DNA of 64,000 bases from Escherichia phage vB_EcoM_3HA14: sequence record MN342151.1; one strand, written 5' to 3'. Below the pieces are notes generated by a model that saw nothing but the letters and a program-made list of their open reading frames with translations, was not told where the DNA came from and did not search any database. The translations under genes and the position numbers were made by a program. Shown here piece after piece: positions 7,797 to 38,493 of this stretch. Each line of letters opens with the position of its first letter. The first letter of the stretch is position 1.

Positions 7797-8065
7797 AAAT
7801 CTTAAGCGGAGTATCACAGTGTTACATGAATGATGGTGAGCCAGTTAAATGCTGCCATTGTGGAGGTGAGAACTTCCAAGGTGAAGTTTCAGAGATTGTC
7901 TCTGGCAATATCGCTGAAGAGTACACCCGTTGCTGTGGATGTGGAAAGATTTTATCTTTTTGGGCTTATGGAAGTTATGAACCACAACCTCACCTTATTT
8001 ACCATCCAAACAGGATTGTGAAGCGTGTTCTGAACTGGTTCATTATCAAAGGATTTACAAAATGA
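7793..8065 (+). CDS. Cys-rich zinc-ribbon-like protein (90 aa)
   Basis: Paired CxxC-like motifs (CCHCGG ... CCGCG). Confidence 0.4.
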   Translation: MKILSGVSQCYMNDGEPVKCCHCGGENFQGEVSEIVSGNIAEEYTRCCGCGKILSFWAYGSYEPQPHLIYHPNRIVKRVLNWFIIKGFTK

Positions 8066-8607
8066 TTAAGTTAATTTTTGCAAGTGGTATTAACGGGGAG
8101 TTTGGCACAGCTACTGGAATGCCTTGGCCTCGTAATAAACAAGATATGGCAGAGTTTAAGAAGCAGACTGTTAACCAGTTAGTCTTGATGGGTAGCGAAA
8201 CTTGGAAGACTCTTGGGAGCAAGCCTTTGCCAAACCGTGAGAATATTGTCTTGACAAACTCTCTTGACTTTTACGGTCTGGACTTTAAAGATGACTCTCA
8301 TTGTAAAGCAAGAGTTAAGCCTGAAGCTTTTGGGGCTTTCCTGAAGTATATTGATAGCTCTATTGATGAAGATGTTTTAGTAATCGGTGGAGCCAATATC
8401 TTAATCTCAGCTTTGCCGTATGCTGACGTAGTTTTCCACAGTGTTATTAAGGAAGTTACTGAAGAGGCTACTGTCAAGCTACCTTATGAGGGTTTCTTCC
8501 AGTACTTGTATGACACAGAGTTATTTGCTAAAGTACAGTCCAAACCTTCAGAAGATAAGTCTGTTGTGTTTGATACCTATGTTCCACAAGTAAGAGGACG
8601 TTTCTAA
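8062..8607 (+). CDS. folA: dihydrofolate reductase
   Basis: N-terminus MIKLIFASGINGEFG..MPW...LVLMGSETW..LG..PLPNRENIVLT matches the DHFR family pattern; sits next to thymidylate synthase. Confidence 0.8.
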   Translation: MIKLIFASGINGEFGTATGMPWPRNKQDMAEFKKQTVNQLVLMGSETWKTLGSKPLPNRENIVLTNSLDFYGLDFKDDSHCKARVKPEAFGAFLKYIDSSIDEDVLVIGGANILISALPYADVVFHSVIKEVTEEATVKLPYEGFFQYLYDTELFAKVQSKPSEDKSVVFDTYVPQVRGRF

Positions 8608-8608
8608 T

Positions 8609-9508
8609 ATGTCACAAGCAGATGTAAGCTACAAAGCTATTTTAAACCATGTTTTATCAGTTGGTGAGTTGCGTAAAACCCGAACTGGCTCAGTGATTTC
8701 AACCTTTGCTCCACCTGAGTTCCGTTTTGATATGCGTAGTGGATTTCCATTAATCACCTCAAAACAAACATTCATGCGTCAAGTCCTCGGTGAAGCATTA
8801 TGGTTTATGAACGGTGAAAACCAACTAGGCCATTTGCGTTACAGAACTTGGGGAGAGAACGACGGAGAGCGTTGGACTATCTGGACAGATGATTTTAAAC
8901 GTTGGTTGAAAACAACCTATGCTACAGAGAATGATTGGCTGGAGGATGCTGGAGGAAGAATCTATGGAGTCCAATGGAGAGCCTACGAAGGTCATGGTGG
9001 CGTTGTTGTAGACCAGTTGAGTAATCTTGTAGAGAAGATGAGAAAGTCTCCTACAGACCGTTACATGCTCGTTAACGCATGGAATGCAGCAGATATCTCA
9101 AGTAACTCTATGGCATTAGCACCTTGCCATGTACTTTTTCAGATTTATATCTCGAACACTAATGAGGTGGATTTGAAATGGTATCAGCGTTCTTGTGATA
9201 CGTTCTTAGGGTTACCATTTAACATTGCTTCCTATGCCTTTATCTTGGAAGTGTTGTGTAAACTGACGGGATATACACCGCGATATCTGGTAGGGACTTA
9301 TGGTGATACTCAAATCTATCAGAACCATATGTCACAGGTTTTTCAGCTTCTTGGCAATGAAGAGTTCCCAGCACCTAAGTTTGAAATTCATCAAGATTTG
9401 AAGTCTCTTGAAGACTTGAGACATATGACAGCAGATGACTTCCTAGGTGGGTTGAAAGGGTATAAACATGCTGGTAAGATTGAAGCACCTTTATCAGTAG
9501 GTAAGTAG
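8609..9508 (+). CDS. thyA: thymidylate synthase
   Basis: Catalytic-site region ALAPCHVLFQ and QRSCDTFLGLPFNIASYA closely match ThyA conserved blocks. Confidence 0.9.
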   Translation: MSQADVSYKAILNHVLSVGELRKTRTGSVISTFAPPEFRFDMRSGFPLITSKQTFMRQVLGEALWFMNGENQLGHLRYRTWGENDGERWTIWTDDFKRWLKTTYATENDWLEDAGGRIYGVQWRAYEGHGGVVVDQLSNLVEKMRKSPTDRYMLVNAWNAADISSNSMALAPCHVLFQIYISNTNEVDLKWYQRSCDTFLGLPFNIASYAFILEVLCKLTGYTPRYLVGTYGDTQIYQNHMSQVFQLLGNEEFPAPKFEIHQDLKSLEDLRHMTADDFLGGLKGYKHAGKIEAPLSVGK

Positions 9509-9512
9509 AAAC

Positions 9513-9545
9513 AAAAAAGGCTCCCGTAAAAAGGAGCCTTAGAAT
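9513..9545. terminator. probable bidirectional rho-independent terminator between convergent genes
   Basis: Stem GGCTCC/GGAGCC with short loop; A-run upstream and T-rich downstream gives a T-tract on both strands. Confidence 0.5.
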
Positions 9546-9919
9546 TATTTCTTTTTAGTGCTTTGGGTATTTTGTTCTGTAATTGCTTGCAAAGCTGATA
9601 CAGATTGTGCTAAGTTGTTAACACTGTCAGAGAACTTATCAAGGGTCTTAGTCAACTTAGCGTTTTCTCCCTTAACATTCTCTAGCTGAACTTTCTGGTT
9701 CTCCATCCCTAATTGTAGGAGCTTCATATCAGATTGTAAGTCACGAATAGCTGAATAGTTACCTTTTGAGTAACCATCCAACTGCTGTAACTTATTTGTG
9801 ATAGACACTTCCTGTTTACCATCAGAGACCTGCATTGTAGTGTACATACCAATTACACTGAAAATACCTACAACGATTGCACCAATATTATTCTTAAAAG
9901 CATCTTCAAGCCACTTCAT
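9545..9919 (-). CDS. membrane-anchored coiled-coil protein (124 aa)
   Basis: N-terminal hydrophobic segment IGAIVVGIFSVIGMY followed by heptad-like Q/L/K-rich region. Confidence 0.45.
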   Translation of the reverse strand: MKWLEDAFKNNIGAIVVGIFSVIGMYTTMQVSDGKQEVSITNKLQQLDGYSKGNYSAIRDLQSDMKLLQLGMENQKVQLENVKGENAKLTKTLDKFSDSVNNLAQSVSALQAITEQNTQSTKKK

Positions 9920-10113
9920 TATTTCTCACCTTTAAAAGCCTTTTCCAAGGTATCTACAAATTCATCATCAATAGGTGTATCTGTTTTGCTCGCAAGGTAT
10001 CTTGCAAGCTTAAAGAACACTTTTTCAATCATGTATTCACTGAGAAGAGAAAAAAGAAGCTTCCAAAAGAATGCCCCAAGGTTTTTCATGAGGATTGCTA
10101 GAATGGTTGGCAT
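9919..10113 (-). CDS. small membrane protein (64 aa), holin-like candidate
   Basis: Hydrophobic N-terminal half, charged C-terminus; start overlaps downstream gene. Confidence 0.35.
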   Translation of the reverse strand: MPTILAILMKNLGAFFWKLLFSLLSEYMIEKVFFKLARYLASKTDTPIDDEFVDTLEKAFKGEK

Positions 10114-10199: not shown

Positions 10200-12578
10200 T
10201 TATGCAGTTCTTACCCAAGCCATTAATTTAATGTAAGTGTTCTGAACACTGAATGCTGCACCAGAACCAGTTGCACCAGTGTTACCACTAAATGTGTGGT
10301 TGTGAGCACCAATACCTACACCGTGACCGTGAGCACCTACCCAACTTGTTCTCCCTGTCCAAGTTCTTGATGCGTAGAAGTTGACAGGTGTACCATAAGT
10401 GAATTGTGAACCAGTATAACCTCTAGAGGCTTGTGAACCTGAGATAGCGAATGCCCCACTTGCTGTATAGAAGCTGTTTGCATCACTTCTGAAGAAACCA
10501 AAGTCACCAGAGATTTCCATGTTACCTCTGTCATGGTCGTGAGCACCTTGAGCGTCTGTGTACTTAGTACCATAATCAAATGTACTTGTTGTTCCAGAGA
10601 AGCTATGAGTGTGCGCAGGAATATGACCAACACTTAGAGCCACCGTATCAGAACCACCAAGACCTTTCACATCGGAACCATTTGCAGAACCAATCCTAAT
10701 AGTTCTGTTTGCACCTTCTGTCAAGTAAGTCCAAGTAGTGCCTGGGAAAGCTGTATTTGGGTTGACATTAGAAGCAAAGAACGTCACAATACCAACTGGA
10801 TACACTTTCTTAAGGTCTGTAGAATCAGTTACCGCAGAGGCAATACGTTGGTCTACTTCAGCCTTGGTGTAAGCACCAAGTTCAGAGGGTGTAGGTTTGT
10901 CTTGGTCTGTGTAGATTTTAGCCCAAACCTCTTCAAAACCAAATCCATCCCTTGCTGTTCTATAATAGATTCCAGTATTCTTGTAGTTAAATTTAAACTG
11001 TGCAGTCGGTGTAGATGTACCAACTCCAAGGTGCATTTGGTAAACTAAGTGAGTAGACCCACCAGTTGAATTTGTAACACTGTACAAACCTGTTTTTGAA
11101 TTCCAAGCAATACCTGTTGCATCACCTACTTCTGTTCCCGTTCCAGATACACCAGACAACATATATCTTGAGTTTGCAGCAGATTGTGTGTAGTATCTTG
11201 AGTCAAAGTTTGACCAATCTGTAGGCTGAACCTGACCAGTTACTGATACGCTTCTGTTGAACATGAAAGTGTCAGCAATTTCTAACTGTACACCACCACT
11301 TGAATAGTTGTACAGGAACAGAGAATTTGGCCTACTGCCTTCACCGTTACCAATATACCAACGTCTGTTGCCGTCTGCATTAGCGCCAACAATATACAGT
11401 GATGAATTAGCTGTCCCACTTTGCAATGTGAAAGCCGCATCTGTAGTAACAATAGTTTGTGGGTTAGTAAAAACGTTTGCAGCATTAGTTCTTGCAAGCA
11501 CGTTCGTTAAAGAGCTTGGAACATATCTTGTATCAAAGTTTGCGAAGTCACTTGGTTTTACCTGACCAGATACATTAATAGCTTTGTTAAATGAAAACTC
11601 TGTAGCAATTTTCAAGTTAACATTTGTCATCTGGTTTGCTAAAACAATCTCAGACTGCGTACCATCTGGTTGACCCACATACCAAGCACCTGTCCCAGCA
11701 CTGTTGTAACCACGCATAAATAATGCAGCATTCTCTGAAGCCGCTCTTAAGTTAAGTGCATTACTATCTGCAATAACATAAGTCTTCCCGTTGAAGTTGT
11801 TAACCCCAACAAAGTTATTACTTGCATTAAGTCTTGCAAATCTCTGGTCAGCAGCAGTCTGTGTAAAGAATCTTGCATCAAGGTTGTTCCAGTTATTAGG
11901 CTGAACCTGACCATTGATTTCAAAGTTCTTGTCAACACTAACAGAGTTTGTACCAAGAGTCAACGTAGCACCTTTGCTGTTAACTAATGTAACATCAGTC
12001 CCAGAAGTCAAGTTACCAACTGTGAATCTCAAAGCATTATTTGAGTCTCTTGCTTCAATATATGCTCCACCATCTGGTAAGATACTTTTAAGTGTCAAAC
12101 CAACACCGTTGATATTAATGATTTGTCTTGCCAAGAAAGTATTTTCAGTTTCCTTCATAGCATATCTTGCATCATTTTCAGTGTTAGTTCTCATACCTAA
12201 TTCATTAGGAGATGGTTTATTAAGTGTGTGATAAACTGTTGCAGACCTTGTGGCATCATTTACAGTTAATCTTAAAGCACTTGCATTAATTCTAAAGGTC
12301 TTGGCAGTGTCACCGAGAATAACTTCAGAAGAACCTGTTGGGTCTAATAAGTCTTTTCCACCGTATCTTAATTTAACGATGCCAAGATTTCCTGTCATAT
12401 CCCCACCAGTTAGTTGTAAGAATCTTTCTAGTTTGAAAGAGGCAAGGAAATTTGCATAGGTCATTTTACGGTCTTCATCACCTAGCATATCAGACCTTTT
12501 GATAATTCTTAGGTGAAGTAAATCTTCTGAGCGAACTGTATCAATACTGTTTAGCTCACTTAGCTTATATTCAGCCAT
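10200..12578 (-). CDS. tail fiber protein (792 aa)
   Basis: Large S/T/N/G-rich protein with repetitive N-rich segments and C-terminal His-x-His boxes (HIPAHTHSF, HDHD, HGHGVGIGAHNHTF); first gene of the tail module. Confidence 0.7.
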   Translation of the reverse strand: MAEYKLSELNSIDTVRSEDLLHLRIIKRSDMLGDEDRKMTYANFLASFKLERFLQLTGGDMTGNLGIVKLRYGGKDLLDPTGSSEVILGDTAKTFRINASALRLTVNDATRSATVYHTLNKPSPNELGMRTNTENDARYAMKETENTFLARQIININGVGLTLKSILPDGGAYIEARDSNNALRFTVGNLTSGTDVTLVNSKGATLTLGTNSVSVDKNFEINGQVQPNNWNNLDARFFTQTAADQRFARLNASNNFVGVNNFNGKTYVIADSNALNLRAASENAALFMRGYNSAGTGAWYVGQPDGTQSEIVLANQMTNVNLKIATEFSFNKAINVSGQVKPSDFANFDTRYVPSSLTNVLARTNAANVFTNPQTIVTTDAAFTLQSGTANSSLYIVGANADGNRRWYIGNGEGSRPNSLFLYNYSSGGVQLEIADTFMFNRSVSVTGQVQPTDWSNFDSRYYTQSAANSRYMLSGVSGTGTEVGDATGIAWNSKTGLYSVTNSTGGSTHLVYQMHLGVGTSTPTAQFKFNYKNTGIYYRTARDGFGFEEVWAKIYTDQDKPTPSELGAYTKAEVDQRIASAVTDSTDLKKVYPVGIVTFFASNVNPNTAFPGTTWTYLTEGANRTIRIGSANGSDVKGLGGSDTVALSVGHIPAHTHSFSGTTSTFDYGTKYTDAQGAHDHDRGNMEISGDFGFFRSDANSFYTASGAFAISGSQASRGYTGSQFTYGTPVNFYASRTWTGRTSWVGAHGHGVGIGAHNHTFSGNTGATGSGAAFSVQNTYIKLMAWVRTA

Positions 12579-12623
12579 TTATAAATCCTCTTTCTAGGGG
12601 CTGTGTAGCCCCTTATAAAATAA

Positions 12624-13799
12624 TTACGCAGTTCTCTTCCAAACATATACAACATAAGAAGGTTGCTCAATATTAAATGCTTGTCCAGCACCAAATGCAC
12701 CAGTTGTACCTGAGTGAGTGTGCTCAGAAGATTGAACTGTCACAGTACCTGAGTGTCCATGTGAACCAATTGCAACACTGTGTCCATGTGCTCCGATATA
12801 CACACTGTGAGAGTGGTTACCACCAACTGAAGAATTAACGTTGAAGGTATGTGTGTGAACCCCATCAAAGTCTGTATATGACGCATTACCAACACCTGCA
12901 TCAGCCGTTGCCGTAATAGCATTCACACCACCCCTGTCAGAACCCCTCAATGGAATCCTGTGGCTGTGACTACCAGCACTGCTTACAGAACCATTAACGT
13001 TATGAGCGTGGCTTCCAGAGTCGTTTGTGGCCTTAGAACCATAATCAAAACTTGATGTGCTCTTAGTCCCATAGTCAAAGTTAGAAATTACTACTGTTGC
13101 ATTGTGGGAGTGTCCACCACCAGTTAGTAATACAGAGTGTGTGTGACTTGGAATGTTATTTTGTGTAAGTGTTACAGTAGCAGAACCAAATACTGATTCT
13201 ACAGGTCTTGTATCTGTGTCATAACCGACAAGAGACCTTCCTTTAGAAACTAACTCCCAAGTACCACCACAAAGTAAATATGTAGATGGGTTTGCAGGGT
13301 TAACTGACAAATGAATAGTACCGATTGGATAGCTATTCTGGATAGCTCTATATAAAGCATTCACAGCTTTTGCAGTAGCATACTTATCAGCGTCTTCAGA
13401 GTAAGAGTTTGAATATGTCCAGTTTTGAATATTAGACAAACCTACTTGAATCTTGTTAGTGTTGTGAGGGTTATTCTTGTCATTAATGTGATTCTGAATA
13501 AGGGCATTAACTTCATCACTTGATAGAATATTAAGGTTCTGTCTAGCCTCTTCAACACTAACCACGTCTGACAAGTTATTAGCAGCCACTAATTGGAGCG
13601 CGTTAATAACATTACCAAGTTCTACGTGAACCTTTGTAACACCGTGTGGGTTATTTCTCAAAGATGCGTGTGGAGCAAGTAATTGCTCAAGTGTGCATCG
13701 TTTATCCTCAATACCTTGCTTAAGGTGAAAGATATCACTTAAATCAATAGGCAACGAGGCTTGAGGCAATGCACTAATTTGAATTTCACCTACTGGCAT
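12624..13799 (-). CDS. tail fiber protein 2 (391 aa)
   Basis: C-terminal third is dominated by repeated HxH boxes (HTHSV, HSHNA, HAHNV, HSHR, HTHTF, HSHSV, HGHSV, HGHSG, HTHSG); adjacent to the long fiber gene. Confidence 0.7.
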   Translation of the reverse strand: MPVGEIQISALPQASLPIDLSDIFHLKQGIEDKRCTLEQLLAPHASLRNNPHGVTKVHVELGNVINALQLVAANNLSDVVSVEEARQNLNILSSDEVNALIQNHINDKNNPHNTNKIQVGLSNIQNWTYSNSYSEDADKYATAKAVNALYRAIQNSYPIGTIHLSVNPANPSTYLLCGGTWELVSKGRSLVGYDTDTRPVESVFGSATVTLTQNNIPSHTHSVLLTGGGHSHNATVVISNFDYGTKSTSSFDYGSKATNDSGSHAHNVNGSVSSAGSHSHRIPLRGSDRGGVNAITATADAGVGNASYTDFDGVHTHTFNVNSSVGGNHSHSVYIGAHGHSVAIGSHGHSGTVTVQSSEHTHSGTTGAFGAGQAFNIEQPSYVVYVWKRTA

Positions 13800-13801
13800 T
13801 A

Positions 13802-14101
13802 TTAGCTCCCTTTATATTCGTATGTGTAAAGGTTAGTCGTGCTAGTGGGTGCAGTTCCTGTTACTGTGTCAATTAATTCCCAACCATTGGAAACTAAATC
13901 AGGTTGCTCCGTAGCAAATGAACGAACCTCTCCAACCGTACCATTTACTTTGTTAAGCAAATAGTTGATAATATAGTTAAACCACTGACGACCCATAGGT
14001 TCACCCCTTAATAGGCCAGTGGCTTGAATTTCTGGAGGTGGTAAAACTTTAAGCTGGTTACCATCAGCATCAACTGTATCTGTAGACCATGAAAGAGACA
14101 T
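13802..14101 (-). CDS. hypothetical tail protein (99 aa)
   Basis: Small ORF between baseplate and fiber genes. Confidence 0.4.
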
Positions 14102-14997
14102 TATGAACTTCCTTCTTGTTGAGATTTATCTTTTCTGCCTTTGACGATTTGGGCGACTTCTGCCATAATCCCATAATCACCACCTGCTACTGTTTCTTTA
14201 CCAGCAATGAAATAGTCGTTGCTATTGTTTGTTTTGCTGACTTTCAAATAATCTTTACTGGTACTTCCACCAGTTTTATCCACTCTTACATAACCATCTC
14301 TTACACCTGCATCTGCAAAACTACCTAATTTATTTGCTTCTAGAGAGCCACCTGTGTTGTTCGTAATAAGACCCTTGTTAGTGTTTGTTACAAACCAGTT
14401 ATTGTTCTCATCAGTAATTGCCAGAGATGAATCAGCAACCTCTACAGGAGTCCAAGCAGTACCATTTAAGGTAACATCTCTAAGGATAACTGCTGAACCA
14501 ATAGTTGTTGCAGCAATCTTAGAAAGTGTGTATGCTGTATCTAACACGTTATTACGAGTGTTTACACGGATAACAATTCCACCAGTCATTGGCGTAATGT
14601 GCTCAAAAATCTGGCTGAATGATGCGTTGTAAAGAGTCATAACAGCTCTTTGTAAGAAGCTTGGTGTGGTGTCAGAACGTCTTAAGAAAATTTGAATGTA
14701 GAGGATAGCTCTGTAAGTGTCATCATCAGCACCAATAGGTCTAGGGACTTTAATCAAAGCCCCGATGTTATCAAGTTGTGTGCCAACACCTACACGAATA
14801 TTTCTTTCAGTATATAACTGATTACTGATATCCTCTAATAATTGTAACTCATCTGTGATAGATTTCAATAGACTTGTGTAAATAAACTTATCTTTGAATT
14901 GAGTTACAGTTCTTTCGTCCAATGTTTTCTCATAAAAGTTTTCAATCTTTTTAAACATTGTTACTCCTTGGTAATTGTATACTGTGAGCTTTCCCAA
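14101..14997 (-). CDS. putative baseplate protein (298 aa)
   Basis: Position in baseplate block next to fiber genes. Confidence 0.4.
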
Positions 14998-16430
14998 ACA
15001 GTGTACTGGTCACCATCAATAGTGATTCTTGAAGTTGTGTACTGCCCCTCAGCAGGTGGAATTGCTTGGTTATTTGAAAGTGCAACCTTAATCTCATTAA
15101 TCTCGATACCTTGAATCACATCATAGATATGTCCATAGATTCTGTTAGGGATTACATCGTTACCAACTTTCAAAGTTCTACCGTAGGCATTAATACCTTG
15201 AACAATTCTGTCATGAATATCCTGTTCAGGGATGTTAAGAGTTTCTTCATCGTAAAGAGAGTAAGTAACCTTGACAAAAACGTATTTAGGCATTGGTCTA
15301 CTAAAGTAAACGTCGTGAGGGAGAGAACCTAAGTCATATGCAGTCCCAAAGATTGAACCATATGGGCGAATACCAGCAGGTTTCGTGTCCCAGATTGCCT
15401 GTGCAATATTATCATTCTGACCACCAACTACAACAATCTTAAAAGACTTCGGAGGAAGACCATCAGAGTTTGTTGTCTCAGTATCATTTTCTACACCAGA
15501 AGCATCAGACACACCTTGAACTCTCTTGACAGCAGCTACAATAGCATCTAGAGTACCTACACCAGTAACAGCCAAAGATTCTAAGTAACGCTGTCTCAGT
15601 TCTGTGTCAGTTTCCTCATCACGACCTGTTGTCAAGTCATATCTGTTGAAAACACTATCGAGACCATCTACAGTTGTTTCAATCTCAATCAAGGTTCCTG
15701 CCAGAGTCTGGATGGCTCCAGTTTCATCTGCTACAACGTCACTAATTGAAGTAATCTTTGTAAATGTTAAGAATGTCGTTGCGGTAACAACCATAGGGTT
15801 AGTTCTGGCAATGATATCTCCAGTGTCTTTATAGATTCTCAGAACTGAACCATCATTAGTAACTTCAGCCTTTGCAATAATACCACCATTAATAGCATCT
15901 GCAAGTTTCTGTAGCAATGTTGTAATGGTATCAGAACTAGTCGGCTGATATGAATACTCAATGTTGTCAATGATAATAACATAGTTTGCATCTGTTCGTA
16001 AAGAGTTAACTTCTAAGTTTGCCTCTACACAGTAAGATGGAGTCAGTGTGAAAGTTGACACAGGGTAAAAGATATTACCTGCTGTGCTTCTTAATCTTGT
16101 AGTGGCTGGTACAGGAGCACCAGAATTACCAGTGAACTCAGCTTGGCCTCTTGTAGCCTGTGCCACATATCTGTATACAGCATTCAAAGCTGTTACATCA
16201 TCTAAACTGAATCCTTCAGCTTTGTCAATAGTACCACCATCATAGATTTCTGACAAGATTTCATGAACGTCTGCAAGACCTCGGCAAACAGAAGCTAAGA
16301 ATAACCCAAGTTCGCTATCTTCAGAAACATCAAGGTTTGGTGAGATATCTCTATACAGACTTGCTTTAACATCATCCAAGATTTCTTGATATCTTTTTGT
16401 TTGTAAACCTGTAGTTGTTAATCCAGCCAT
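14961..16430 (-). CDS. putative baseplate wedge protein (J/gp6-like, 489 aa)
   Basis: Size and position downstream of a gp25/W-sized gene, as in P2/T4-type baseplate modules; inferred from synteny. Confidence 0.45.

Positions 16431-16845: not shown

Positions 16846-16846
<1 letters not shown>
16430..16846 (-). CDS. putative baseplate wedge protein (W/gp25-like, 138 aa)
   Basis: Size and synteny between spike-like and J-like genes. Confidence 0.45.
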
Positions 16847-19607
<2,761 letters not shown>

Positions 19608-33541: not shown

Positions 33542-33617
33542 TGGAGTATCGGAAGGGACTCGAACCCTCATAAACCTGTTTTGCAGACAGGCACATAACC
33601 ATTTCTGACACCGACAC
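33542..33617 (-). tRNA. tRNA-Cys (GCA)
   Basis: Manual fold: acceptor GTGTCGG/CCGATAC, anticodon arm CCTGT-CTGCAAA-ACAGG, T-arm GAGGG-TTCGAGT-CCCTT, CCA encoded. Confidence 0.75.
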
Positions 33618-33623
33618 ATAATT

Positions 33624-33716
33624 TGGAGGAAGATACCAGACTTGAACTGGTACGCCGATTTCTCGGTTACTGGCAGTTTAGCAAACTGCTCCCTTACCTT
33701 TTAGGGTTAATCTTCC
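33624..33716 (-). tRNA. tRNA-Ser (GCT), long variable arm
   Basis: 93 nt; acceptor GGAAGAT/ATCTTCC perfect; anticodon loop TTGCTAA; long variable arm; T-loop TTCAAGT. Confidence 0.75.
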
Positions 33717-33717
33717 A

Positions 33718-34452
33718 TTATTTGTTCAGAGCTTCTTTCATCTCTGGAGTTGCGATAGTATCAATCACACCAGTTTTACATGAATCATCAAACCAGCTTG
33801 GTAGAACATTCGCAAGGAAACCATTAATATTTGTTTTCAGATATTCTGCAATCAGTGCTGCTTCATCTGCAATCATCTGAGTTACTTCGTTAGCATATGC
33901 AGTAATCTTTGCAATACCCTCATTAATCGCTGTAACGGCCTGTGTAGCGAGTTCAGAGATTGTATCTAGTCCTTGGTCGATTGCATCTTGCAAATCGCTT
34001 AGAACGCCATTTACAGCGTCTATGGAGGTATTAATCAAATCCATCGCTTTATTACCGTACTCGGTAGCTACGCCCATGATACCGCTAAACGGTGTACATC
34101 CAACCTGTTCACCTGCTGCTCCCATAACGTTAGAGTAACCTTTAGCTACTTGCATACGTTGTGAAAACTCATCTACAGACTTTTGTCCATACTCAGTAAG
34201 TGTACTTGTCGTTGAAGTTGTACTTCCAAGGCTTGTTGTGAAGCTTCCTAATAAGGCTGTTGTCAGTCCAGCAGCAACTAAAATCTGTTGTGTAGCTGGG
34301 TCTGTTACAGAACTAATTGAGTTAACTAATGATTGAGAGGCAGCTATAGTACCACCAAGAACTGCTGCACCAGTAATAAGAGGGTTTGAAAAACCATTAC
34401 CAGTTTTAAGGAGATTAAAAATCTCTTTACTTTGTTCTGTCATCTCTTTCAT
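33718..34452 (-). CDS. hypothetical Ala/Thr/Ser-rich protein (244 aa) within tRNA cluster
   Basis: ORF-track start (GTG at 34515) would run through a tRNA-Phe; ATG at 34452 has a GGTG RBS and avoids the tRNA. Confidence 0.5.
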   Translation of the reverse strand: MKEMTEQSKEIFNLLKTGNGFSNPLITGAAVLGGTIAASQSLVNSISSVTDPATQQILVAAGLTTALLGSFTTSLGSTTSTTSTLTEYGQKSVDEFSQRMQVAKGYSNVMGAAGEQVGCTPFSGIMGVATEYGNKAMDLINTSIDAVNGVLSDLQDAIDQGLDTISELATQAVTAINEGIAKITAYANEVTQMIADEAALIAEYLKTNINGFLANVLPSWFDDSCKTGVIDTIATPEMKEALNK

Positions 34453-34468
34453 TATGCACCTATAAAGT

Positions 34469-34545
34469 TGGTAGCCCATCGGGATTTGAACCCTGTTCTC
34501 ATGTTTTTCAGACACGCGCTTTAACCATATAAGCTAATTGAGCTA
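34469..34545 (-). tRNA. tRNA-Phe (GAA), atypical acceptor/D spacing
   Basis: Anticodon arm CGTGT-CTGAAAA-ACATG; D-arm GCTT-ATATGGTTA-AAGC; T-loop TTCAAAT; acceptor pairs only with a 1-2 nt offset and T-stem is weak. Confidence 0.55.
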
Positions 34546-34551
34546 TTAAAT

Positions 34552-34628
34552 TGGGGTGACCTACGGGAATCGAACCCGTATAGACCATGTTCACAGCATG
34601 GGTCATTATCCATTTATGATAAGGCCAC
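34552..34628 (-). tRNA. tRNA-His (GTG)
   Basis: Anticodon arm CCATG-CTGTGAA-CATGG; D-arm TCAT/ATGA; acceptor GTGGCCT/AGGTCAC; CCA encoded. Confidence 0.75.
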
Positions 34629-34659
34629 ATTTAAGGACTCTCGTAAGAATCCTTAGAAG

Positions 34660-34735
34660 TGGCAGCAGTATAAGGATTTGAACCTTAATCTTTCAGCTTC
34701 AGAGGCTGGAGCATTGCCAGTTATGCTATACTGCT
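34660..34735 (-). tRNA. tRNA-Gln (CTG)
   Basis: 76 nt; anticodon loop CTCTGAA; D-arm GCAT/ATGC; acceptor AGCAGTA/TACTGCT perfect. Confidence 0.7.
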
Positions 34736-34741
34736 AATATT

Positions 34742-34820
34742 TGGTACTCCATATCGGATTCGAACCGATACATAACACAGATTTTAAATCTGGCCTCTCT
34801 GCCAATTGGAGTAATGGAGC
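34742..34820 (-). tRNA. tRNA with Leu anticodon (TAA) but short variable arm
   Basis: Anticodon loop TTTAAAA; D-loop AATTGGCAGAG (Leu-like); variable region about 7 nt; discriminator A; T-arm ATCGG-TTCGAAT-CCGAT. Confidence 0.6.
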
Positions 34821-34822
34821 AT

Positions 34823-34898
34823 TGGCGGGGGATGATGGAATTGAACCATCTTCTTCGATTTCAAAGACCGAGGTTTTAACCTTGTAAACTAATCCCCT
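34823..34898 (-). tRNA. tRNA-Gln (TTG)
   Basis: Anticodon arm TCGGT-CTTTGAA-ATCGA; D-arm GTTT/AAAC; position 1:72 mismatched. Confidence 0.65.
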
Positions 34899-35124
34899 AA
34901 CGAACTCTTGAAAGAATATATGCGTTATTGCAAGTATCCTTATTTTCAGGTAGTGATGTTTCGAAGATAACTTGCTTAAGTTCTAATCCAGCAAAGTTAT
35001 AAACAACCTTTCTAACTTCTAACGGGTCACATTGCCAACCAACCGCTATAAAGAAAGTATCTCCAAATCTACCTGTTTCAATCTTGTGGTCATCTTTATG
35101 TTTTTCAACTATGAGTTTATACAT
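34897..35124 (-). CDS. hypothetical protein (75 aa) between tRNA genes
   Basis: ORF fills the gap between two tRNAs. Confidence 0.35.
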   Translation of the reverse strand: MYKLIVEKHKDDHKIETGRFGDTFFIAVGWQCDPLEVRKVVYNFAGLELKQVIFETSLPENKDTCNNAYILSRVR

Positions 35125-35142
35125 AATGTTACCTATTAAATT

Positions 35143-35219
35143 TGGTGCAGAATAGAGGATTCGAACCCCTAACTAACAACTTCGTAGGTTGCTGCTCTGT
35201 CCATTTGAACTAATTCTGC
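35143..35219 (-). tRNA. tRNA-Arg (ACG)
   Basis: Acceptor GCAGAAT/ATTCTGC perfect; anticodon arm GCAAC-CTACGAA-GTTGT. Confidence 0.75.
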
Positions 35220-35381
35220 AATATCCTTTTGAGATTCCTGTCTAGCTCTCTTCTTATCTCTTCTGAGAAAGCGTTTACGATGGTCTGTACGCCATTTGTA
35301 ATAATCTTCTTCACCATCATGCGCTGCACAGCAGCCACAACTTGCAATTTCAACTTTACCATGTCTACCATAAGGCTTCAT
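35169..35381 (-). CDS. hypothetical Cys-rich basic protein (70 aa)
   Basis: ORF whose 3' 51 nt overlap tRNA-Arg; CxC plus basic KRxRR-like segment. May be real or chance. Confidence 0.3.
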   Translation of the reverse strand: MKPYGRHGKVEIASCGCCAAHDGEEDYYKWRTDHRKRFLRRDKKRARQESQKDIAELVQMDRAATYEVVS

Positions 35382-35397
35382 AGGAATCTCCTAAAAT

Positions 35398-35475
35398 TGG
35401 TGTTCCAAGACGGATTCGAACCGTCACTAATACAAGGTTTGAGCTTGCATCCTCTGCCAATTGGGATACTGGAAC
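35398..35475 (-). tRNA. tRNA with Leu anticodon (CAA) but short variable arm
   Basis: Anticodon arm GCAAG-CTCAAAC-CTTGT; D-loop AATTGGCAGAG; variable region about 6 nt; discriminator A. Confidence 0.6.
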
Positions 35476-35476
35476 T

Positions 35477-35551
35477 TGGTACTCGCTGAAGGACTTGAAC
35501 CTTCTTCACCAACTTGTAAGGATGGGGCTTTACCATATAAACTAAGCGAGC
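35477..35551 (-). tRNA. tRNA-Val (TAC)
   Basis: Anticodon loop CTTACAA; T-arm GAAGG-TTCAAGT-CCTTC; separated by 1 nt from the neighbouring tRNA. Confidence 0.7.
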
Positions 35552-35646
35552 TTTGAAGAGGTCTGAAGCTGTGCCGCTAACTCAACTCCGTGGAATTTGT
35601 TACGGTCTTCAGTTGACTCAAGCGGTCTTTCACTTGACCTCAAAAT

Positions 35647-35723
35647 TGGTGCTGCTCACAGGACTCGAACCTGCATCTCCATCCTTACAAGGGATGTGCA
35701 ATAGCCAATTATACGAAAGCAGC
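35647..35723 (-). tRNA. tRNA-Thr (TGT)
   Basis: Anticodon arm CATCC-CTTGTAA-GGATG perfect; T-loop TTCGAGT. Confidence 0.75.
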
Positions 35724-35729
35724 ATTATT

Positions 35730-35804
35730 TGGAGCATCCAGAGGGAATCGAACCCTCAACCTCAGTTTGGAAGACTGTAATTTTCCCATTTAAACTATGG
35801 ATGC
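35730..35804 (-). tRNA. tRNA-Gly (TCC)
   Basis: Acceptor GCATCCA/TGGATGC perfect; anticodon loop CTTCCAA. Confidence 0.75.
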
Positions 35805-35810
35805 ACTAAT

Positions 35811-35886
35811 TGGTGGAGAAGCAGGGAATTGAACCCTGTACTTAAGTTTGCAAAACTTATGTTTTAACCATGTAAACTACATCCCC
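35811..35886 (-). tRNA. tRNA-Ala (TGC)
   Basis: Anticodon arm TAAGT-TTTGCAA-ACTTA perfect; D-arm GTTT/AAAC; G3:U70 wobble (Ala identity element) present. Confidence 0.8.
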
Positions 35887-35892
35887 ATTGTT

Positions 35893-35968
35893 TGGTACAG
35901 GTGGAGGGAATTGAACCCATCGTCTTACTGATTAAGAGTCAGCCGCATAACCATTTTGCTACACCTGC
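35893..35968 (-). tRNA. tRNA-Lys (CTT)
   Basis: Anticodon arm GCTGA-CTCTTAA-TCAGT; T-stem only 3 bp (GGG/CCC). Confidence 0.6.
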
Positions 35969-35975
35969 ATTAATT

Positions 35976-36052
35976 TGGTACACCTAGAGAGATTCGAACT
36001 CACACTGAGCAGATTCTAAGTCTGCTGCCTCTTCCAATTGGGCTATAGGTGC
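35976..36052 (-). tRNA. tRNA with Leu anticodon (TAG) but short variable arm
   Basis: 77 nt; anticodon arm GCAGA-CTTAGAA-TCTGC perfect; D-loop AATTGGAAGAG; 5-nt variable loop; discriminator A. Confidence 0.65.
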
Positions 36053-36305
36053 ATTAAATCTTTGTAGAGAACTGCTAAGACGCCAAAGCAACAATGGTAT
36101 CAAATGCCTTAACAATTCTCTAAAAAGACCTATTGGCCTCTGCATAGTCTTGCTTAATCCGGTGACTAGAACCTTTGGAGAGCTTGATACTATCTCTTCT
36201 CCGTGACACCTACTAGGTGCTTTACCAGTGCCGTGTACGCCAATACACGAAGAGGAAACCTGAAACACTTGCTCGAACAAATAGTCTCAGCTTTAAATCT
36301 TATTA

Positions 36306-36395
36306 GGCGGTAGATAAAGGAGTCGAACCCTCACCGTATCTCTACAATGGCAACTGTTTTCAAGACAGTTTGGCTTCCATTAGCCGCTACCTACC
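36306..36395 (-). tRNA. tRNA-Ser (TGA), long variable arm
   Basis: About 90 nt; anticodon arm ACTGT-CTTGAAA-ACAGT; long variable arm; 3' CC encoded but not the terminal A. Confidence 0.7.
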
Positions 36396-36408
36396 CCTAA
36401 TAAGACTT

Positions 36409-36491
36409 TGGCATGGGACGGAGGATTCGAACCCCTTTGAGTAAGTTTTGGAGGCTTACGCACATGCCTTAGTGTCTTAACATCGTCCCAT
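36409..36491 (-). tRNA. atypical tRNA-like gene, possibly tRNA-Trp (CCA)
   Basis: Perfect 7-bp acceptor ATGGGAC/GTCCCAT and T-arm. Anticodon stem GTAAG/CTTAC encloses a 9-nt loop CCTCCAAAA (CCA anticodon if the closing pair is unpaired); D region about 8 nt longer than canonical. Confidence 0.5.
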
Positions 36492-36656
36492 ACTATATTT
36501 CGAAGCTTACCCTGTTATCTCAACACTGTCAAGCTTCTTCTCAGATTATTTACATGTTCTGGAAAACATGAGATACAGACCACCTCCTTATGAGATTGAC
36601 TCTTTCAAGTCAATGCGGAGACCCATAAAGGTCGTCATAGTAATCTGCTAACTAAT

Positions 36657-36724
36657 TGGCAGTCAAGGTAGGAGTCGAACCTACTTACTATTAAAGGGAG
36701 CTACCCTTCAGCAACTATCCGACT
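36657..36724 (-). tRNA. tRNA-like element (truncated or non-canonical)
   Basis: Canonical T-arm GTAGG-TTCGACT-CCTAC and CCA end, but only about 68 nt to the best acceptor match; no convincing anticodon arm. Confidence 0.35.
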
Positions 36725-36785
36725 TTCGTTTATCTCTTAACGCGTATCCAAGATAACTTACTCGTGTTGTCTTGACCATTAAAAT

Positions 36786-36862
36786 TGGCACACCCTACAG
36801 GATTCGAACCTGTAACTGACGGTTTAGAAGACCGTTGCTCTATCCGTTTGAACTAAGGGTGC
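36786..36862 (-). tRNA. tRNA-Arg (TCT)
   Basis: Anticodon arm ACGGT-CTTCTAA-ACCGT perfect; T-arm ACAGG-TTCGAAT-CCTGT. Confidence 0.75.
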
Positions 36863-37066
36863 ATTATCTTTAAAGGCTCTCTTAGAAAACCCTTAAAGAT
36901 GCCCACTTTATTAATCATACCGTGGGCTAGTACGCCAAATTCTTTAACAGGGAGTTGGAATACCCTGCTGGTGTTTAGCCTATTAAGCTACTGCCAGAAA
37001 AACATTATCGTTTGCATTTATTTTTAAGTTTTTAAAATAGACGCTACGCTAACGAAAACTAAGGTT

Positions 37067-37095
37067 ATCTTAAAGTGGTCACATCTAAATGTCAA
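37067..37095 (-). promoter_or_regulatory. possible internal sigma70-like promoter in tRNA cluster spacer
   Basis: On - strand: TTGACA (37090-37095), 17-nt spacer, TAAGAT (37067-37072). Confidence 0.3.
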
Positions 37096-37109
37096 CAACT
37101 TTATGAAAT

Positions 37110-37187
37110 TGGTTGTAGGTGAGGGTATCGAACCCTCTTCTAACGGTTATCAGCCGTTTGCATTACCATTTATGCTAACCCACAATT
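37110..37187 (-). tRNA. tRNA-Ile (GAT)
   Basis: Anticodon arm AACGG-CTGATAA-CCGTT perfect; D-arm GCAT/ATGC. Confidence 0.75.
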
Positions 37188-37189
37188 GG

Positions 37190-37266
37190 AGGTTCAGGTG
37201 GGAATCGAACCCACATTCATAGGGCTTATGAAACCCTTGCATTACCTTATCTGCGACTGAACCATT
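37190..37266 (-). tRNA. tRNA-Met (CAT), elongator-like
   Basis: Acceptor GGTTCAG/CTGAACC perfect; anticodon arm AGGGT-TTCATAA-GCCCT; 1:72 paired, so not initiator-like. Confidence 0.7.
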
Positions 37267-37344
37267 ATAAGTTGCCCCTTTGTAGAGAACTGATTGAGTG
37301 GGTGTTTCCAGCCGCGCATGTGTTCTTCAGTTAAGGGGCGAATT

Positions 37345-37421
37345 TGGTAGAAGTGGAGGGATTCGAACCCGTCGCCTGTCAGATTAAAAGTCTGCCGCAT
37401 CACCATTCTGCTACACTTCCA
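37345..37421 (-). tRNA. tRNA-Lys (TTT)
   Basis: Anticodon region GCAGA-CTTTTAA-TCTGA; weak T-stem like the CTT isoacceptor. Confidence 0.65.
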
Positions 37422-37606
37422 TTAAATCATCTTTGCAGTAACCTACGCAAACCTTGCTAAAGGGTTTGTAGAGTCATCTCTTATAAGCTAATCTAGAATC
37501 ATGCTCAAGAGACTCTTCGGCACTCATGGGACGACTGGTTAGCTCCATAAGTCACTGCAAAGAGGATTACCAGACCGTATTTATCTTAAGTGCTTCCATT
37601 ACACCA

Positions 37607-37643
37607 ACACGCCGTAACGTGTGAAGGAATCGAACCTTCGCCT
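37607..37643 (-). ncRNA. orphan T-arm-like hairpin with adjacent stem-loop (tRNA-like module without acceptor or anticodon)
   Basis: Sense strand GAAGG-TTCGATT-CCTTC followed by ACACG-TTACGG-CGTGT; no pairing acceptor found within 100 nt. Confidence 0.3.
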
Positions 37644-37844
37644 TTTCTTTACCAGAGAAATAGATTGTTTATTGTTTGCTGTAAACGGTCTTCTGTAAAA
37701 TTGTTGGAACCAGACCAAGTTTTAAATTTTTCAAATTAAATTGGCTTGAAATATTAAAATTGCTTGCTGTATTTGGTCTTCTGCTCCTTTAAAGAATACT
37801 CGTAAGAACTCTTTAAGGGAGGGGCTAAAAAGCCCTCTCAAATT

Positions 37845-37921
37845 TGGCGGTTACGAAGGGATTCGAACCCTCATCATCCTCCGTGACAGGGAGGTATTTT
37901 GACCAGTTAAACTACATAACC
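37845..37921 (-). tRNA. tRNA-Asp (GTC)
   Basis: Anticodon arm CCTCC-CTGTCAC-GGAGG perfect; T-arm GAGGG-TTCGAAT-CCCTT. Confidence 0.75.
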
Positions 37922-37927
37922 TTTATT

Positions 37928-38015
37928 TGGTGCGCCGTGAAGGAGTCGAACCTCCCGAGTCATAATGACAAGTGATTTACAGTCACCACCGCTTCCATCT
38001 ACGGGATAACGACGC
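37928..38015 (-). tRNA. tRNA-Tyr (GTA), long variable arm
   Basis: 88 nt; anticodon arm GGTGA-CTGTAAA-TCACT; variable-arm hairpin TGTCA..TGACT. Confidence 0.7.
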
Positions 38016-38083
38016 ATTTTATTCTATTCAGGCTAAGGACTTGCACCTTACAAATCGGTGAGCAATCGCTTCTCTCCCAAATC

Positions 38084-38161
38084 TTGGCGGTTAGTCAGGG
38101 ATTCGAACCCTGTACCATTCGGTTAACAGCCGACCGCACATGCCTTATGTGCTTCCTAACC
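38084..38161 (-). tRNA. tRNA-Asn (GTT)
   Basis: Anticodon loop CTGTTAA; D-arm GCAC/GTGC; T-arm CAGGG-TTCGAAT-CCCTG. Confidence 0.7.
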
Positions 38162-38245
38162 ATGTTAGTATTACCAGACCGTATCTTTTCATTTTTTGCC
38201 TATAAAAAATTTTAAGTGTTTGCTGTAAACGGCCTTCTGTAAATT

Positions 38246-38322
38246 TGGAGGCGGGTGTAGGAGTCGAACCTACCGATAACATGCTAATGAGACATGTGAG
38301 ACACCCTTTCTCTATACCCGCA
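38246..38322 (-). tRNA. tRNA with CAT anticodon (Met or Ile2), 1:72 mismatch
   Basis: Anticodon arm CATGT-CTCATTA-GCATG; first acceptor pair unpaired (T:C). Confidence 0.6.
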
Positions 38323-38409
38323 ATTCTTAATGACCAGACCAAATCTTTTTTGGATTTCTATGCGCGAAATTGAAAAGTTTGTTTGCTGTAATTGGTCTTC
38401 TGTCAAAAC

Positions 38410-38487: not shown

Positions 38488-38493
38488 ATAATT

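Follow-up and report, generated by a model that had tools for sequence, protein, structure and literature searches.

Paired histidine boxes in the two tail fibers of a Mooglevirus phage suggest receptor-binding tips of the T4 gp37 type

Two tail fiber genes in an Ounavirinae structural block

Positions 10200 to 13799 of the 64,000-nucleotide stretch of Escherichia phage vB_EcoM_3HA14 analyzed here (the window) encode two proteins whose C-terminal regions are crowded with His-x-His (HxH) motifs, and the question raised by the locus is what these boxes do and whether they take part in recognizing the host. An earlier note, made from the letters of the DNA, had read two fiber genes in this interval, and two minus-strand ORFs, 12624..13799 (391 aa) and 10200..12578 (792 aa), do fill it exactly; all features described below lie on the minus strand. 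Our answer, which we regard as very probable, is that both fibers end in a receptor-binding module of the T4 gp37 type, in which the chain passes from a collar into a needle, forms a head and returns to the collar.

The phage belongs to the genus Mooglevirus (subfamily Ounavirinae), with 98-99% identity to Shigella phages Sf15 and Sf19 over the 64-kb window, and the DNA of the two-fiber region is 95.6-98.8% identical to that of Sf13-Sf19. That both products are tail fibers, as had been proposed, agrees with independent evidence. The short protein matches phrog_2097, a tail fiber family (E = 4.8e-131), and is 99% identical to P0001 in the homolog listing, and the long one matches phrog_4277 over its full length and is listed with 100% identity to P0121, the tail fiber of vB_EcoM_3HA14, at 100% coverage. 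GenBank records of near-identical phages annotate both as tail fibers, and Sf14 gp52 (391 aa) and gp53 (792 aa) are virion proteins according to mass spectrometry and cryo-EM (PMC11821841).

The order of the genes (wedge 2, wedge 1, long tail fiber (LTF) platform, short tail fiber (STF), LTF) is that of the Ounavirinae structural module, and the Sf19 annotation is colinear with this wedge-platform-fiber block. ORFs 14961-16430, 14101-14997 and 13802-14101 match gp23, gp24 and gp25 in PDB 9NDY, the baseplate of phage Bas63 (E = 1e-278, 4.5e-152 and 1.3e-54, respectively). The last of them (13802..14101, 99 aa) matches chain S, 'LTF platform protein (gp025)', which the Bas63 paper likened functionally to T4 gp9 (PMC12609058), and by analogy it would be the adaptor attaching the long fiber to wedge protein 1. 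The two genes are hence the STF (391 aa) and LTF (792 aa) of a Mooglevirus, the equivalents of Bas63 gp26 and gp27 and of Sf14 gp52 and gp53, and their near-identity to the latter suggests that both are carried on the virion as separate fibers, as in Sf14 and Bas63. 'Short tail fiber' is here a name by analogy only; PDB sequence searches gave no T4 gp12 chain at E <= 1 for either fiber.

Homology of the histidine boxes to the T4 gp37 tip

Nine HxH motifs are present in the short fiber, at aa 219, 230, 264, 278, 315, 329, 338, 347 and 360, so that the count of nine given in the earlier note stands, although they occupy 144 aa (aa 219-362) and not about 130. Within the C-terminal 181 aa every histidine (18/18) belongs to an HxH pair. 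The long fiber has four motifs, at aa 656, 680, 750 and 759 (span aa 656-761). Shuffling of the whole proteins reached the observed numbers in 0/20000 trials for the short and 0/20000 for the long fiber, and composition-keeping local shuffling of the His-rich C-terminal segment did so in 0/200000 trials for the short fiber (mean 1.7) and 63/200000 for the long one (mean 0.5).

These numbers bear on the notion that the clusters are a functionless by-product of a low-complexity or disordered linker rich in Gly, Ser, Thr and His. The C-terminal segments are compositionally biased, with G, S, T and H dominant, and the confidence of AF2 monomer models is low for both fibers (mean pLDDT of 64 in the STF, of 47 in the C-terminal part of the LTF, and below 50 at short-fiber aa 281-314), which would speak for such a linker; low monomer pLDDT is, however, to be expected of an obligate intertwined trimer. 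Opposed to the linker are the local shuffles, the significant homology to a crystallised fold, the HxH spacing shared with T4 and the near-invariance of the histidines across homologs of 35-99% identity. Conservation and homology refute the linker, and we give it a negligible probability. Foldseek searches against the PDB yielded non-significant matches to gp10 and C24 alone (E about 0.08-0.4), 2XGF not being returned.

Comparison with the T4 gp37 tip (2XGF) gave E = 9.4e-25 (phmmer) and 3.5e-27 (tblastn) for short-fiber aa 146-363, and 4.6e-5 (single sequence) and 2.7e-11 (profile) for the long fiber, the two tips being themselves paralogous (29% identity, E = 5e-18). In the MAFFT alignment T4 positions 883, 915 and 929 pair with short-fiber positions 219, 264 and 278, and positions 966, 980, 989 and 998 with 315, 329, 338 and 347, the HxH spacings of 14, 37, 14, 9 and 9 being identical between both proteins. 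All T4 iron sites (7/7) have hence a partner in the short fiber, which has two boxes more (230 and 360 by MAFFT); because T4 H883 is aligned to H219 by MAFFT and to H230 by phmmer, the identity of these two 'extra' sites is uncertain. The register is partial in the long fiber, where T4 H883 and H915 pair with the boxes at 656 and 680, and H989 and H998 with those at 750 and 759 (spacing 9): the four collar-proximal sites (4/7) are present and the distal three are replaced, F693-G-F695 standing in register with T4 H929-S-H931. The T4 gp37 tip binds seven irons through HxH motifs, of which H929/H931 is essential, and one iron is coordinated by the three H929 of the trimer (PMC6957217). The likeness to metal-coordinating boxes of phage fiber tips, pointed out at the outset, is on these alignments one of homology to the iron-coordinating motifs of T4 gp37 and not of mere similarity, from which metal binding would follow for this phage.

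The Pfam family Gp10_C (PF21939) matches the short fiber with 63.7 bits (cutoff 27), and because the match spans aa 155-390 (profile positions 4-139 of 139) the needle can be placed as an insertion in the collar, in the way that D11 is inserted in D10 of T4 gp37 (PMC6957217). In the long fiber the Gp10_C match stays below threshold (22.9 bits against the cutoff of 27), but the last 30 aa of the protein can be aligned with both the STF and T4. The segments of the short fiber follow from these alignments. Residues 1-145 (13365..13799) would form the N-terminal baseplate-binding part and a helical shaft, with two 'NNPH..TK.QVGL.N' repeats and a DNA repeat (D8) that pairs 13442-13475 with 13622-13655; helices are predicted at aa 37-45, 67-106 and 139-156 in the AF2 monomer. 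The N-terminal part of the collar, similar to T4 gp10 and gp37 D10, takes up aa 146-217 (13149..13364), as placed by phmmer and Gp10_C, the collar matching T4 gp10 (2FKK and 5HX2, E about 5e-7) and aa 144-229 matching gp37 2XGF, all in phmmer. An ascending needle strand with the boxes at 219, 230, 264 and 278 (aa 218-280, 12960..13148), the putative head (aa 281-314, 12858..12959), a descending needle strand with those at 315, 329, 338, 347 and 360 (aa 315-362, 12714..12857) and a C-terminal return strand that would close the collar (aa 363-391, 12627..12713) were delimited by alignment to T4, the head also by its variability and the return strand also by Pfam.

In the long fiber, the N-terminal attachment and shaft (aa 1-476, 11151..12578) contain three repeats of ~112 aa, matched by gp37_trimer (PF20744, E = 8.7e-45 over three stretches) and visible in the DNA as a repeat family (D1) with a spacing of 330/345 nt; a profile search moreover linked this region weakly to T7 gp17 (4A0T, E = 2e-4). 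A domain similar to phage Mu tail fiber S follows (aa 477-587, 10818..11150; gp37_C PF12604, E = 6.2e-18), and matches Mu S/S' (PDB 8JU3) with E = 2.7e-22, or 1.9e-24 with a profile. Alignments with the short fiber and T4 gp37 then place the N-terminal part of the collar (aa 588-654, 10617..10817), a short ascending strand with the boxes at 656 and 680 (aa 655-682, 10533..10616), an enlarged, aromatic-rich head cassette of 67 aa (aa 683-749, 10332..10532) that is delimited also by comparison with relatives, a descending strand with the boxes at 750 and 759 (aa 750-761, 10296..10331) and the C-terminal return strand closing the collar (aa 762-792, 10203..10295). The description of both fibers as ending in HxH clusters should hence be amended: judged by homology, the chain turns back at the head (aa 281-314 in the short and aa 683-749 in the long fiber) and the C-terminus lies again at the collar.

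In the trimeric geometry proposed from T4, the chain would leave the collar, run outward as a beta-strand, form a small distal head and return to finish the collar, and three such chains would build a six-stranded needle. With both imidazoles of each HxH directed at the three-fold axis, six histidines from three chains could bind one metal ion octahedrally, which in T4 is iron. With seven T4-equivalent sites and two at the base of the needle, the STF may therefore hold up to nine ions per trimer, and the LTF, with its larger, aromatic-rich head, would keep only the four collar-proximal ones. The ions would serve as rivets, helping the thin needle to fold and making it stiff, with no contact to the receptor, which would be touched by the variable head that the boxes of the ascending and descending strands enclose. 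Because the chain doubles back in the T4 alignment, aa 281-314, central in the sequence of the short fiber, would be its spatial tip.

The same fold could hold another metal, such as zinc, or sites that are partly empty, the boxes still being structural rivets. The first box of each fiber (IPSHTHS and IPAHTHS) lies within a motif common to collars of the gp10/gp12 type, the T4 gp12 collar binds zinc at the equivalent HxH, and metals are indistinguishable from sequence. On the other hand, gp12 chains are absent from the results of the PDB sequence searches, and gp37, by far the closest solved homolog (E = 9e-25), has iron at all seven sites (PMC6957217). We consider another metal or incomplete occupancy rather unlikely, and iron rivets remain our preferred reading.

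T4 gp37 needs the chaperones gp38 and gp57A to fold. A tblastn search with T4 gp38 gave no match within the 64-kb window (best E = 2.7), which covers about three quarters of the genome (genomes of relatives measure 87-90 kb). Folding may therefore differ from that of T4 gp37, but chaperone dependence concerns how a fiber is put together and is not a defining feature of the tip fold.

Conserved boxes and variable putative heads

In 52 homologs, some with as little as 35% identity, the HxH histidines of the short fiber are conserved at 92-100%, with the exception of site 264 (39/52); those of the descending strand reach at least 92%, and the middle residue of the motif varies freely. All eight HxH histidines of the long fiber are invariant in 35 homologs. 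The most variable segment of the short fiber is aa 281-314 (identity 0.14, entropy 3.1 bits in the 52 homologs), which aligns with residues 932-959 of the T4 gp37 tip with equal 37-residue HxH-to-HxH spacing, and it is likely the receptor-contact segment. In the long fiber, relatives such as Michonne (P0237) have an alternative head cassette with two more HxH at the position of aa 683-749, and identity to them drops to 0.15-0.2 solely between the conserved His boxes; the return strand (aa 762-792) is highly conserved, with an identity of about 0.81 among homologs. Among the best 120 homologs listed, 105 have the tip class of this long fiber, with aromatic residues in register and the large head in place of the three head-proximal metal sites. 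It is possible, though we hold it doubtful, that its 67-aa Tyr/Phe-rich head is a distinct fold without a solved structure, exchanged as a cassette with the six-HxH tip of the Bas63/Michonne type. If this were true, the conserved His boxes would, besides holding metal, be the joints at which recombination switches host range.

The head segments of the two fibers resemble each other neither in sequence nor in length (34 and 67 aa), and each varies independently among relatives. As far as can be judged from sequence, this fits the two specificities envisaged in the earlier note, the paralogous tips differing most at the segment that in T4 contacts the receptor; use of two receptors by this phage is accordingly a prediction, and the ligands of the heads are probably LPS core structures. 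Both fibers may instead act in sequence on one molecule, LPS, the LTF scanning reversibly and the STF binding irreversibly once the baseplate has rearranged, as in T4. The reported receptor dependence of Ounavirinae and Mooglevirus phages, on LPS core rather than on a protein, fits such a sequence; in the Bas63 3D classes the STF lies constantly along the sheath and LTF occupancy is variable, and the authors suggested T4-like sampling by the LTF with later deployment of the STF (PMC12609058). Unrelated heads that vary independently fit different ligands, and different receptors were proposed by the authors of the Sf14 study (PMC11821841). We regard sequential action on one molecule as a serious but less probable option, and it does not exclude two specificities.

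The constancy of the histidines also bears on the 'Ferrojan horse' hypothesis, published for fibers with HxH motifs (Bonnain et al. 2016, as cited in PMC11705849), by which fiber iron would be a bait for siderophore and iron-uptake receptors and the His boxes would take part in recognition. In Bas63, however, the HxH motifs are inside the six-stranded needle barrel and receptor contact in T4 is made by the head (PMC12609058), the three H929 of the T4 trimer are occupied with one iron (PMC6957217), the histidines are invariant while host range varies, and relatives rely on LPS core. We therefore consider this role highly improbable and retain the rivet reading.

The density of motifs, taken at first as high, is not unusual: in the set of short-fiber homologs that was retrieved, nine boxes is the commonest number (from 3 to 14 in those with at least one), and T-even gp37 variants have 7-9 (PMC6563267). 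The value of the analysis is mainly annotational, in that STF aa 281-314 and LTF aa 683-749 are the segments most likely setting host range. The invariant flanking His boxes may serve as natural junctions for engineered tip swaps in therapeutic phages of Shigella and E. coli.

Comparison with known systems

Iron binding by the His boxes of the T4 gp37 needle has been on record since 2010. The T4 tip (gp37 residues 785-1026, 2XGF) has, like the STF, a collar (D10) into which a needle and head (D11) are inserted, and a C-terminus back at the collar. The STF differs from it by two extra boxes and the LTF by the loss of three distal boxes, the head sequences being unrelated; T4 gp37 (1026 aa) moreover makes up the distal half of a fiber built from four proteins, whereas the fibers here consist of one protein each.

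Likeness to phage Mu is limited to one domain, LTF aa 477-582 matching residues 327-429 of Mu S (8JU3, the match of E = 2.7e-22 given above). Mu S has its own receptor-binding domain at its end and needs a chaperone, whereas in this LTF the gp37-type collar-needle-head module comes after the Mu-like domain. Downstream of the fibers, two ORFs of 64 and 124 aa gave no match to a chaperone in Pfam or PHROGs, whether of the Mu U/U' type or another, and Sf14, with a Mu-like baseplate, encodes no homologs of the Mu chaperones (PMC11821841). The Bizionia argentinensis prophage protein C24 (PDB 6OV6), cited as gp52-like by the Sf14 authors (PMC11821841), has no significant sequence or fold match to the fibers here (Foldseek E about 0.2).

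Closest are the fibers of Shigella phage Sf14, also a Mooglevirus, with gp52 and gp53 of equal lengths and 95.6% DNA identity over the two genes. In the cryo-EM study (Commun Biol 2025), docking of AlphaFold trimers gave fibers of about 430 and 630 Å, and two receptors were proposed; the only passage on HxH or iron that a text search of that paper returned concerns the central needle gp47 (PMC11821841).

Bas63 (Escherichia phage JohannRWettstein, a Felixounavirus) shares the subfamily Ounavirinae but not the genus. Cryo-EM of its STF gp26 and LTF gp27 (Sci Adv 2025; baseplate PDB 9NDY) revealed in both a collar like that of T4 gp37, a six-stranded HxH needle and a head, an organisation equated by the authors to Sf14 gp52/gp53 (PMC12609058). 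The collar-needle-head plan with HxH is hence already known for Ounavirinae fibers, and since the feature has been published for close relatives, the finding of His boxes here is correct but ordinary. As compared by description, the Bas63 STF needle has seven di-His motifs by the authors' count, against nine in total here including the collar-edge box, and the Bas63 LTF has six motifs including HHxH, against four HxH and a 67-aa aromatic head here. In both phages variability is concentrated in the tips.

Histidine boxes of the two tail fibers and their conservation

Coordinates 10200-13799 are occupied by just two open reading frames, both on the minus strand, encoding a short tail fiber (STF, 12624..13799, 391 amino acids) and a long tail fiber (LTF, 10200..12578, 792 amino acids). 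An earlier note had proposed that both proteins end in clusters of His-x-His (HxH) boxes, at least nine of them in the shorter one, and the positions bear this out: STF carries nine (starting at amino acids 219, 230, 264, 278, 315, 329, 338, 347 and 360) and LTF four (656, 680, 750 and 759), and all 18 histidines in the last 181 residues of STF belong to the nine pairs. Shuffling the whole proteins never matched the observed number of boxes (0/20000 for STF and 0/20000 for LTF), and shuffles within the His-rich C-terminal segment matched it in 0/200000 cases for STF and 63/200000 for LTF. On the strength of these shuffles and of the conservation of the histidines, the idea that the boxes arose by chance or from low complexity was rejected. 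A DNA-level repeat search of the boxes returned short matches only (65-93% identity), mirroring the protein repeats, and gave no sign of a recent duplication.

Conservation was examined in 52 full-length homologs of STF (35-99% identity) and in 35 homologs of LTF. The STF pairs H230/232 and H347/349 are invariant in 52/52 sequences and the remaining boxes are 92-98% conserved, with the exception of box 264 (39/52), while the middle residue varies freely, with S, T, A, N and G among those seen; in LTF none of the eight box histidines varies in the 35 homologs. Variability in STF reaches its maximum at amino acids 281-300 (identity 0.14, entropy 3.1 bits) and declines toward the flanking boxes, and in LTF the variable parts are the shaft repeats and amino acids 681-740. 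Among the best 120 LTF homologs listed, 105 have the tip with four boxes found here and 13 have a tip with six, as in the Citrobacter phage Michonne. The switch between these classes falls exactly between the invariant boxes 680 and 750, identity being 0.15-0.2 inside and 0.65-0.85 in the flanks, and on these alignments it looks like an exchange of cassettes between invariant histidine boxes.

The density of nine boxes, which had been taken as high, proved to be ordinary. In the C-terminal 260 amino acids of the best 120 STF homologs the commonest number of boxes is nine; two of the proteins have none and the others 3-14. Enterobacterial prophage fibers have mostly 6-8, and T-even gp37 variants are reported to have seven to nine (PMC6563267).

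Homology to the T4 gp37 tip and register of the sites

Database comparisons relate both C-termini to fibers of known structure. In STF, the Pfam domain Gp10_C (PF21939) scores 63.7 bits (cutoff 27) over amino acids 155-390, amino acids 146-363 match the receptor-binding tip of T4 gp37 (PDB 2XGF) with E=9.4e-25, and the collar matches T4 gp10 with E about 5e-7. LTF contains three gp37_trimer repeats, a gp37_C domain at amino acids 478-587 and a sub-threshold Gp10_C match; its amino acids 477-582 match the Mu fiber protein S (8JU3, E=2.7e-22), and amino acids 629-770 match 2XGF with E=4.6e-5 as a single sequence and 2.7e-11 with a profile of 35 sequences. When the T4 tip was used as a query against the whole window, it matched in the STF and LTF genes only. 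The C-terminal modules of the two fibers are 29% identical over 242 amino acids (E=5e-18) and, judging from this similarity, are paralogs. The N-terminal half of STF has two copies of the motif NNPH(G/N)xTKxQVxLxN(V/I) about 60 amino acids apart (amino acids 49-64 and 109-124), visible in the DNA too (13442-13475 and 13622-13655, minus strand); the motif probably marks a helix-turn unit that recurs in the shaft.

The AlphaFold2 (AF2) monomer model of the full STF, built with the 52-sequence alignment, has a mean pLDDT of 64 and a pTM of 0.25; strands start right after each box and the head segment is of low confidence (below 50). Such a single-chain model is blind to the clustering of histidines, the likely fold being an intertwined trimer. 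Foldseek comparison of this model with the PDB gave T4/KP1 gp10 and C24 as the best matches (E 0.08-0.4), with nothing at E<=0.001 and 2XGF absent, and the monomer model of the C-terminal 208 amino acids of LTF reached a pLDDT of 47. These low-confidence models and the Foldseek search speak neither for nor against the homology.

Alignment of T4 gp37 residues 785-1026 with both C-termini yielded a site-by-site register. The T4 boxes stand at 883, 915 and 929 on the ascending part of the chain and at 966, 980, 989 and 998 on the descending part (spacings 32, 14, 37, 14, 9, 9), and those of STF at 219, 230, 264 and 278 ascending and 315, 329, 338, 347 and 360 descending (spacings 11, 34, 14, 37, 14, 9, 9, 13). 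All seven T4 sites have an STF counterpart and the distal spacings 14, 37, 14, 9, 9 are equal to those of T4, with boxes 230 and 360 being extra and located in the part of the needle next to the collar. Phmmer, unlike this alignment, pairs T4 883 with STF 230, and hence which of the basal STF boxes is the extra one is ambiguous. LTF, with 656 and 680 ascending and 750 and 759 descending (spacings 24, 70, 9), retains the four T4 sites nearest to the collar. Its F693-G-F695, in the stretch of amino acids 683-708 (10454-10532, minus strand), falls in the alignment columns of the iron-binding H929-S-H931 of T4, within a segment of 67 amino acids (683-749) rich in Phe, Tyr and Trp, and its relatives have V/F-G-F/W/Y at these columns. 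This suggests that a Phe-Gly-Phe layer may be a hydrophobic substitute for the metal site in this class of LTF tip.

Papers that cite the T4 structure give residues 811-881 and 1010-1026 as the collar of gp37 (D10), with the stem and tip (D11, 882-1009) as an insertion and the tip at roughly 932-959; the needle coordinates seven irons, and H929/H931 are essential (PMC6957217). By homology, the spatial tip would be formed by amino acids 281-314 in STF and 683-749 in LTF, and both C-termini would go back to the collar.

Gene neighbourhood of the fibers

The two genes show 95.6-98.8% DNA identity to those of Shigella phages Sf13-Sf19, KPS64, ESh20 and others, and the first 25 kb of the window are 98.9% identical to Sf15; these phages belong to the genus Mooglevirus in the subfamily Ounavirinae. 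LTF is listed as identical (100%, over its full length) to the tail fiber of Escherichia phage vB_EcoM_3HA14. A minus-strand cluster of 26 tRNA genes (33542-38573), including tRNA-His(GTG) and two tRNA-Met, is also present, and such clusters are typical of Ounavirinae.

Upstream of the fibers, comparison with the baseplate structure of the Felixounavirus Bas63 (PDB 9NDY) identified wedge 2 (14961-16430; Bas63 gp23, E=1e-278), wedge 1 (14101-14997, minus strand; gp24, E=4.5e-152) and the LTF platform (13802-14101, minus strand, 99 amino acids; gp25, chain S, E=1.3e-54), so that the gene order is wedge 2, wedge 1, LTF platform, STF, LTF. The platform gene lies just upstream of STF; its Sf19 homolog is annotated as a hypothetical protein, and that of Sf14 appears in the Sf14 paper as "Homolog of T4 gp11?", not detected by mass spectrometry (PMC11821841). 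Wedge 1 was called with a TTG start (298 amino acids). Bas63 gp24 (285 amino acids) and the Sf19 annotation align with it from Met14 (MFKKIENF), and therefore the true start is probably 39 nt downstream of that TTG; the overlap between the genes of wedge 1 and wedge 2 would then largely disappear.

Directly downstream of LTF there are two small membrane-type ORFs (9545-10113, minus strand). The first encodes 64 amino acids with a hydrophobic N-terminus (phrog_402), and the second 124 amino acids with an N-terminal transmembrane segment and coiled-coil-like sequence, named holin in the Sf19 record. By gene order, its counterpart is probably Sf14 gp55 ("Holin or lysozyme"), which a table of the Sf14 paper gives as detected in virions by mass spectrometry, odd for a holin (PMC11821841). 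This arrangement, with a small ORF between fiber and holin, is reminiscent of T4 genes 37-38-t; these small ORFs carry no detectable chaperone signature, and no homolog of the T4 gp38-type chaperone was found in the 64-kb window. Dihydrofolate reductase and thymidylate synthase genes (8062-9508, plus strand) converge on this fiber and lysis block, and the sign of the GC skew switches near 10 kb, the border between the oppositely transcribed modules.

Proposed metal binding, receptors and comparison with known phages

What the sequences show is homology, register and conservation; the homology supports the reading of the boxes as metal-coordinating, metal binding itself being our inference. Each fiber would be a trimer whose boxes put six imidazoles on the three-fold axis, with one metal ion per level, up to nine in STF and four in LTF, riveting a thin six-stranded needle that would present the variable head to the cell surface. 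By analogy with T4 the metal would be iron, although it may be zinc or the sites may be partly occupied. The idea that the boxes of the fibers act as iron bait was rejected as unsupported.

That the two fibers have different receptor specificities, as also proposed earlier, fits the observation that the heads of STF and LTF are unrelated in sequence, as would be expected with different ligands. The Sf14 authors likewise write that the two fibers may bind different receptors (PMC11821841). Equally possible is a T4-like two-step use of both fibers on the same LPS molecule. LPS use is stated for Mooglevirus at the genus level, and a Henu12-resistant mutant combined a waaH mutation with lowered LPS-gene expression, LPS use there being suggested and not proven.

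The HxH feature is already on record for Ounavirinae and, for practical purposes, for STF and LTF themselves. In Bas63, STF gp26 and LTF gp27 both have a T4 gp37-like tip made up of a collar, a needle of six strands bearing conserved HxH (seven in STF and six in LTF as the authors count) and a head where the chain doubles back; their domain organisation is identical to that of Sf14 gp52 and gp53, with variability concentrated in the tips (PMC12609058). The Sf14 virions contain gp52 (391 amino acids) and gp53 (792 amino acids), whose AlphaFold trimers were docked as fibers measuring about 430 and 630 Å (PMC11821841). Modestly new are the exact register of the boxes with those of T4, the presence of two additional basal boxes in STF, the aromatic residues that replace three distal sites in LTF tips of this class, and the cassette boundary at the invariant LTF boxes.

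The central spike protein (213 amino acids, 16846-17487, minus strand) has an HxH of its own (NEHTHHYYW, H194/H196). A text search of the Sf14 paper for HxH and iron found a single passage, on the central needle gp47 (PMC11821841). The window's H194/H196 matches the iron-binding apex of Sf14 gp47 and of the Bas63 puncturing apparatus (H188/H190), and thus, counting the spike with both fibers, at least three proteins of the virion would carry axial HxH boxes.
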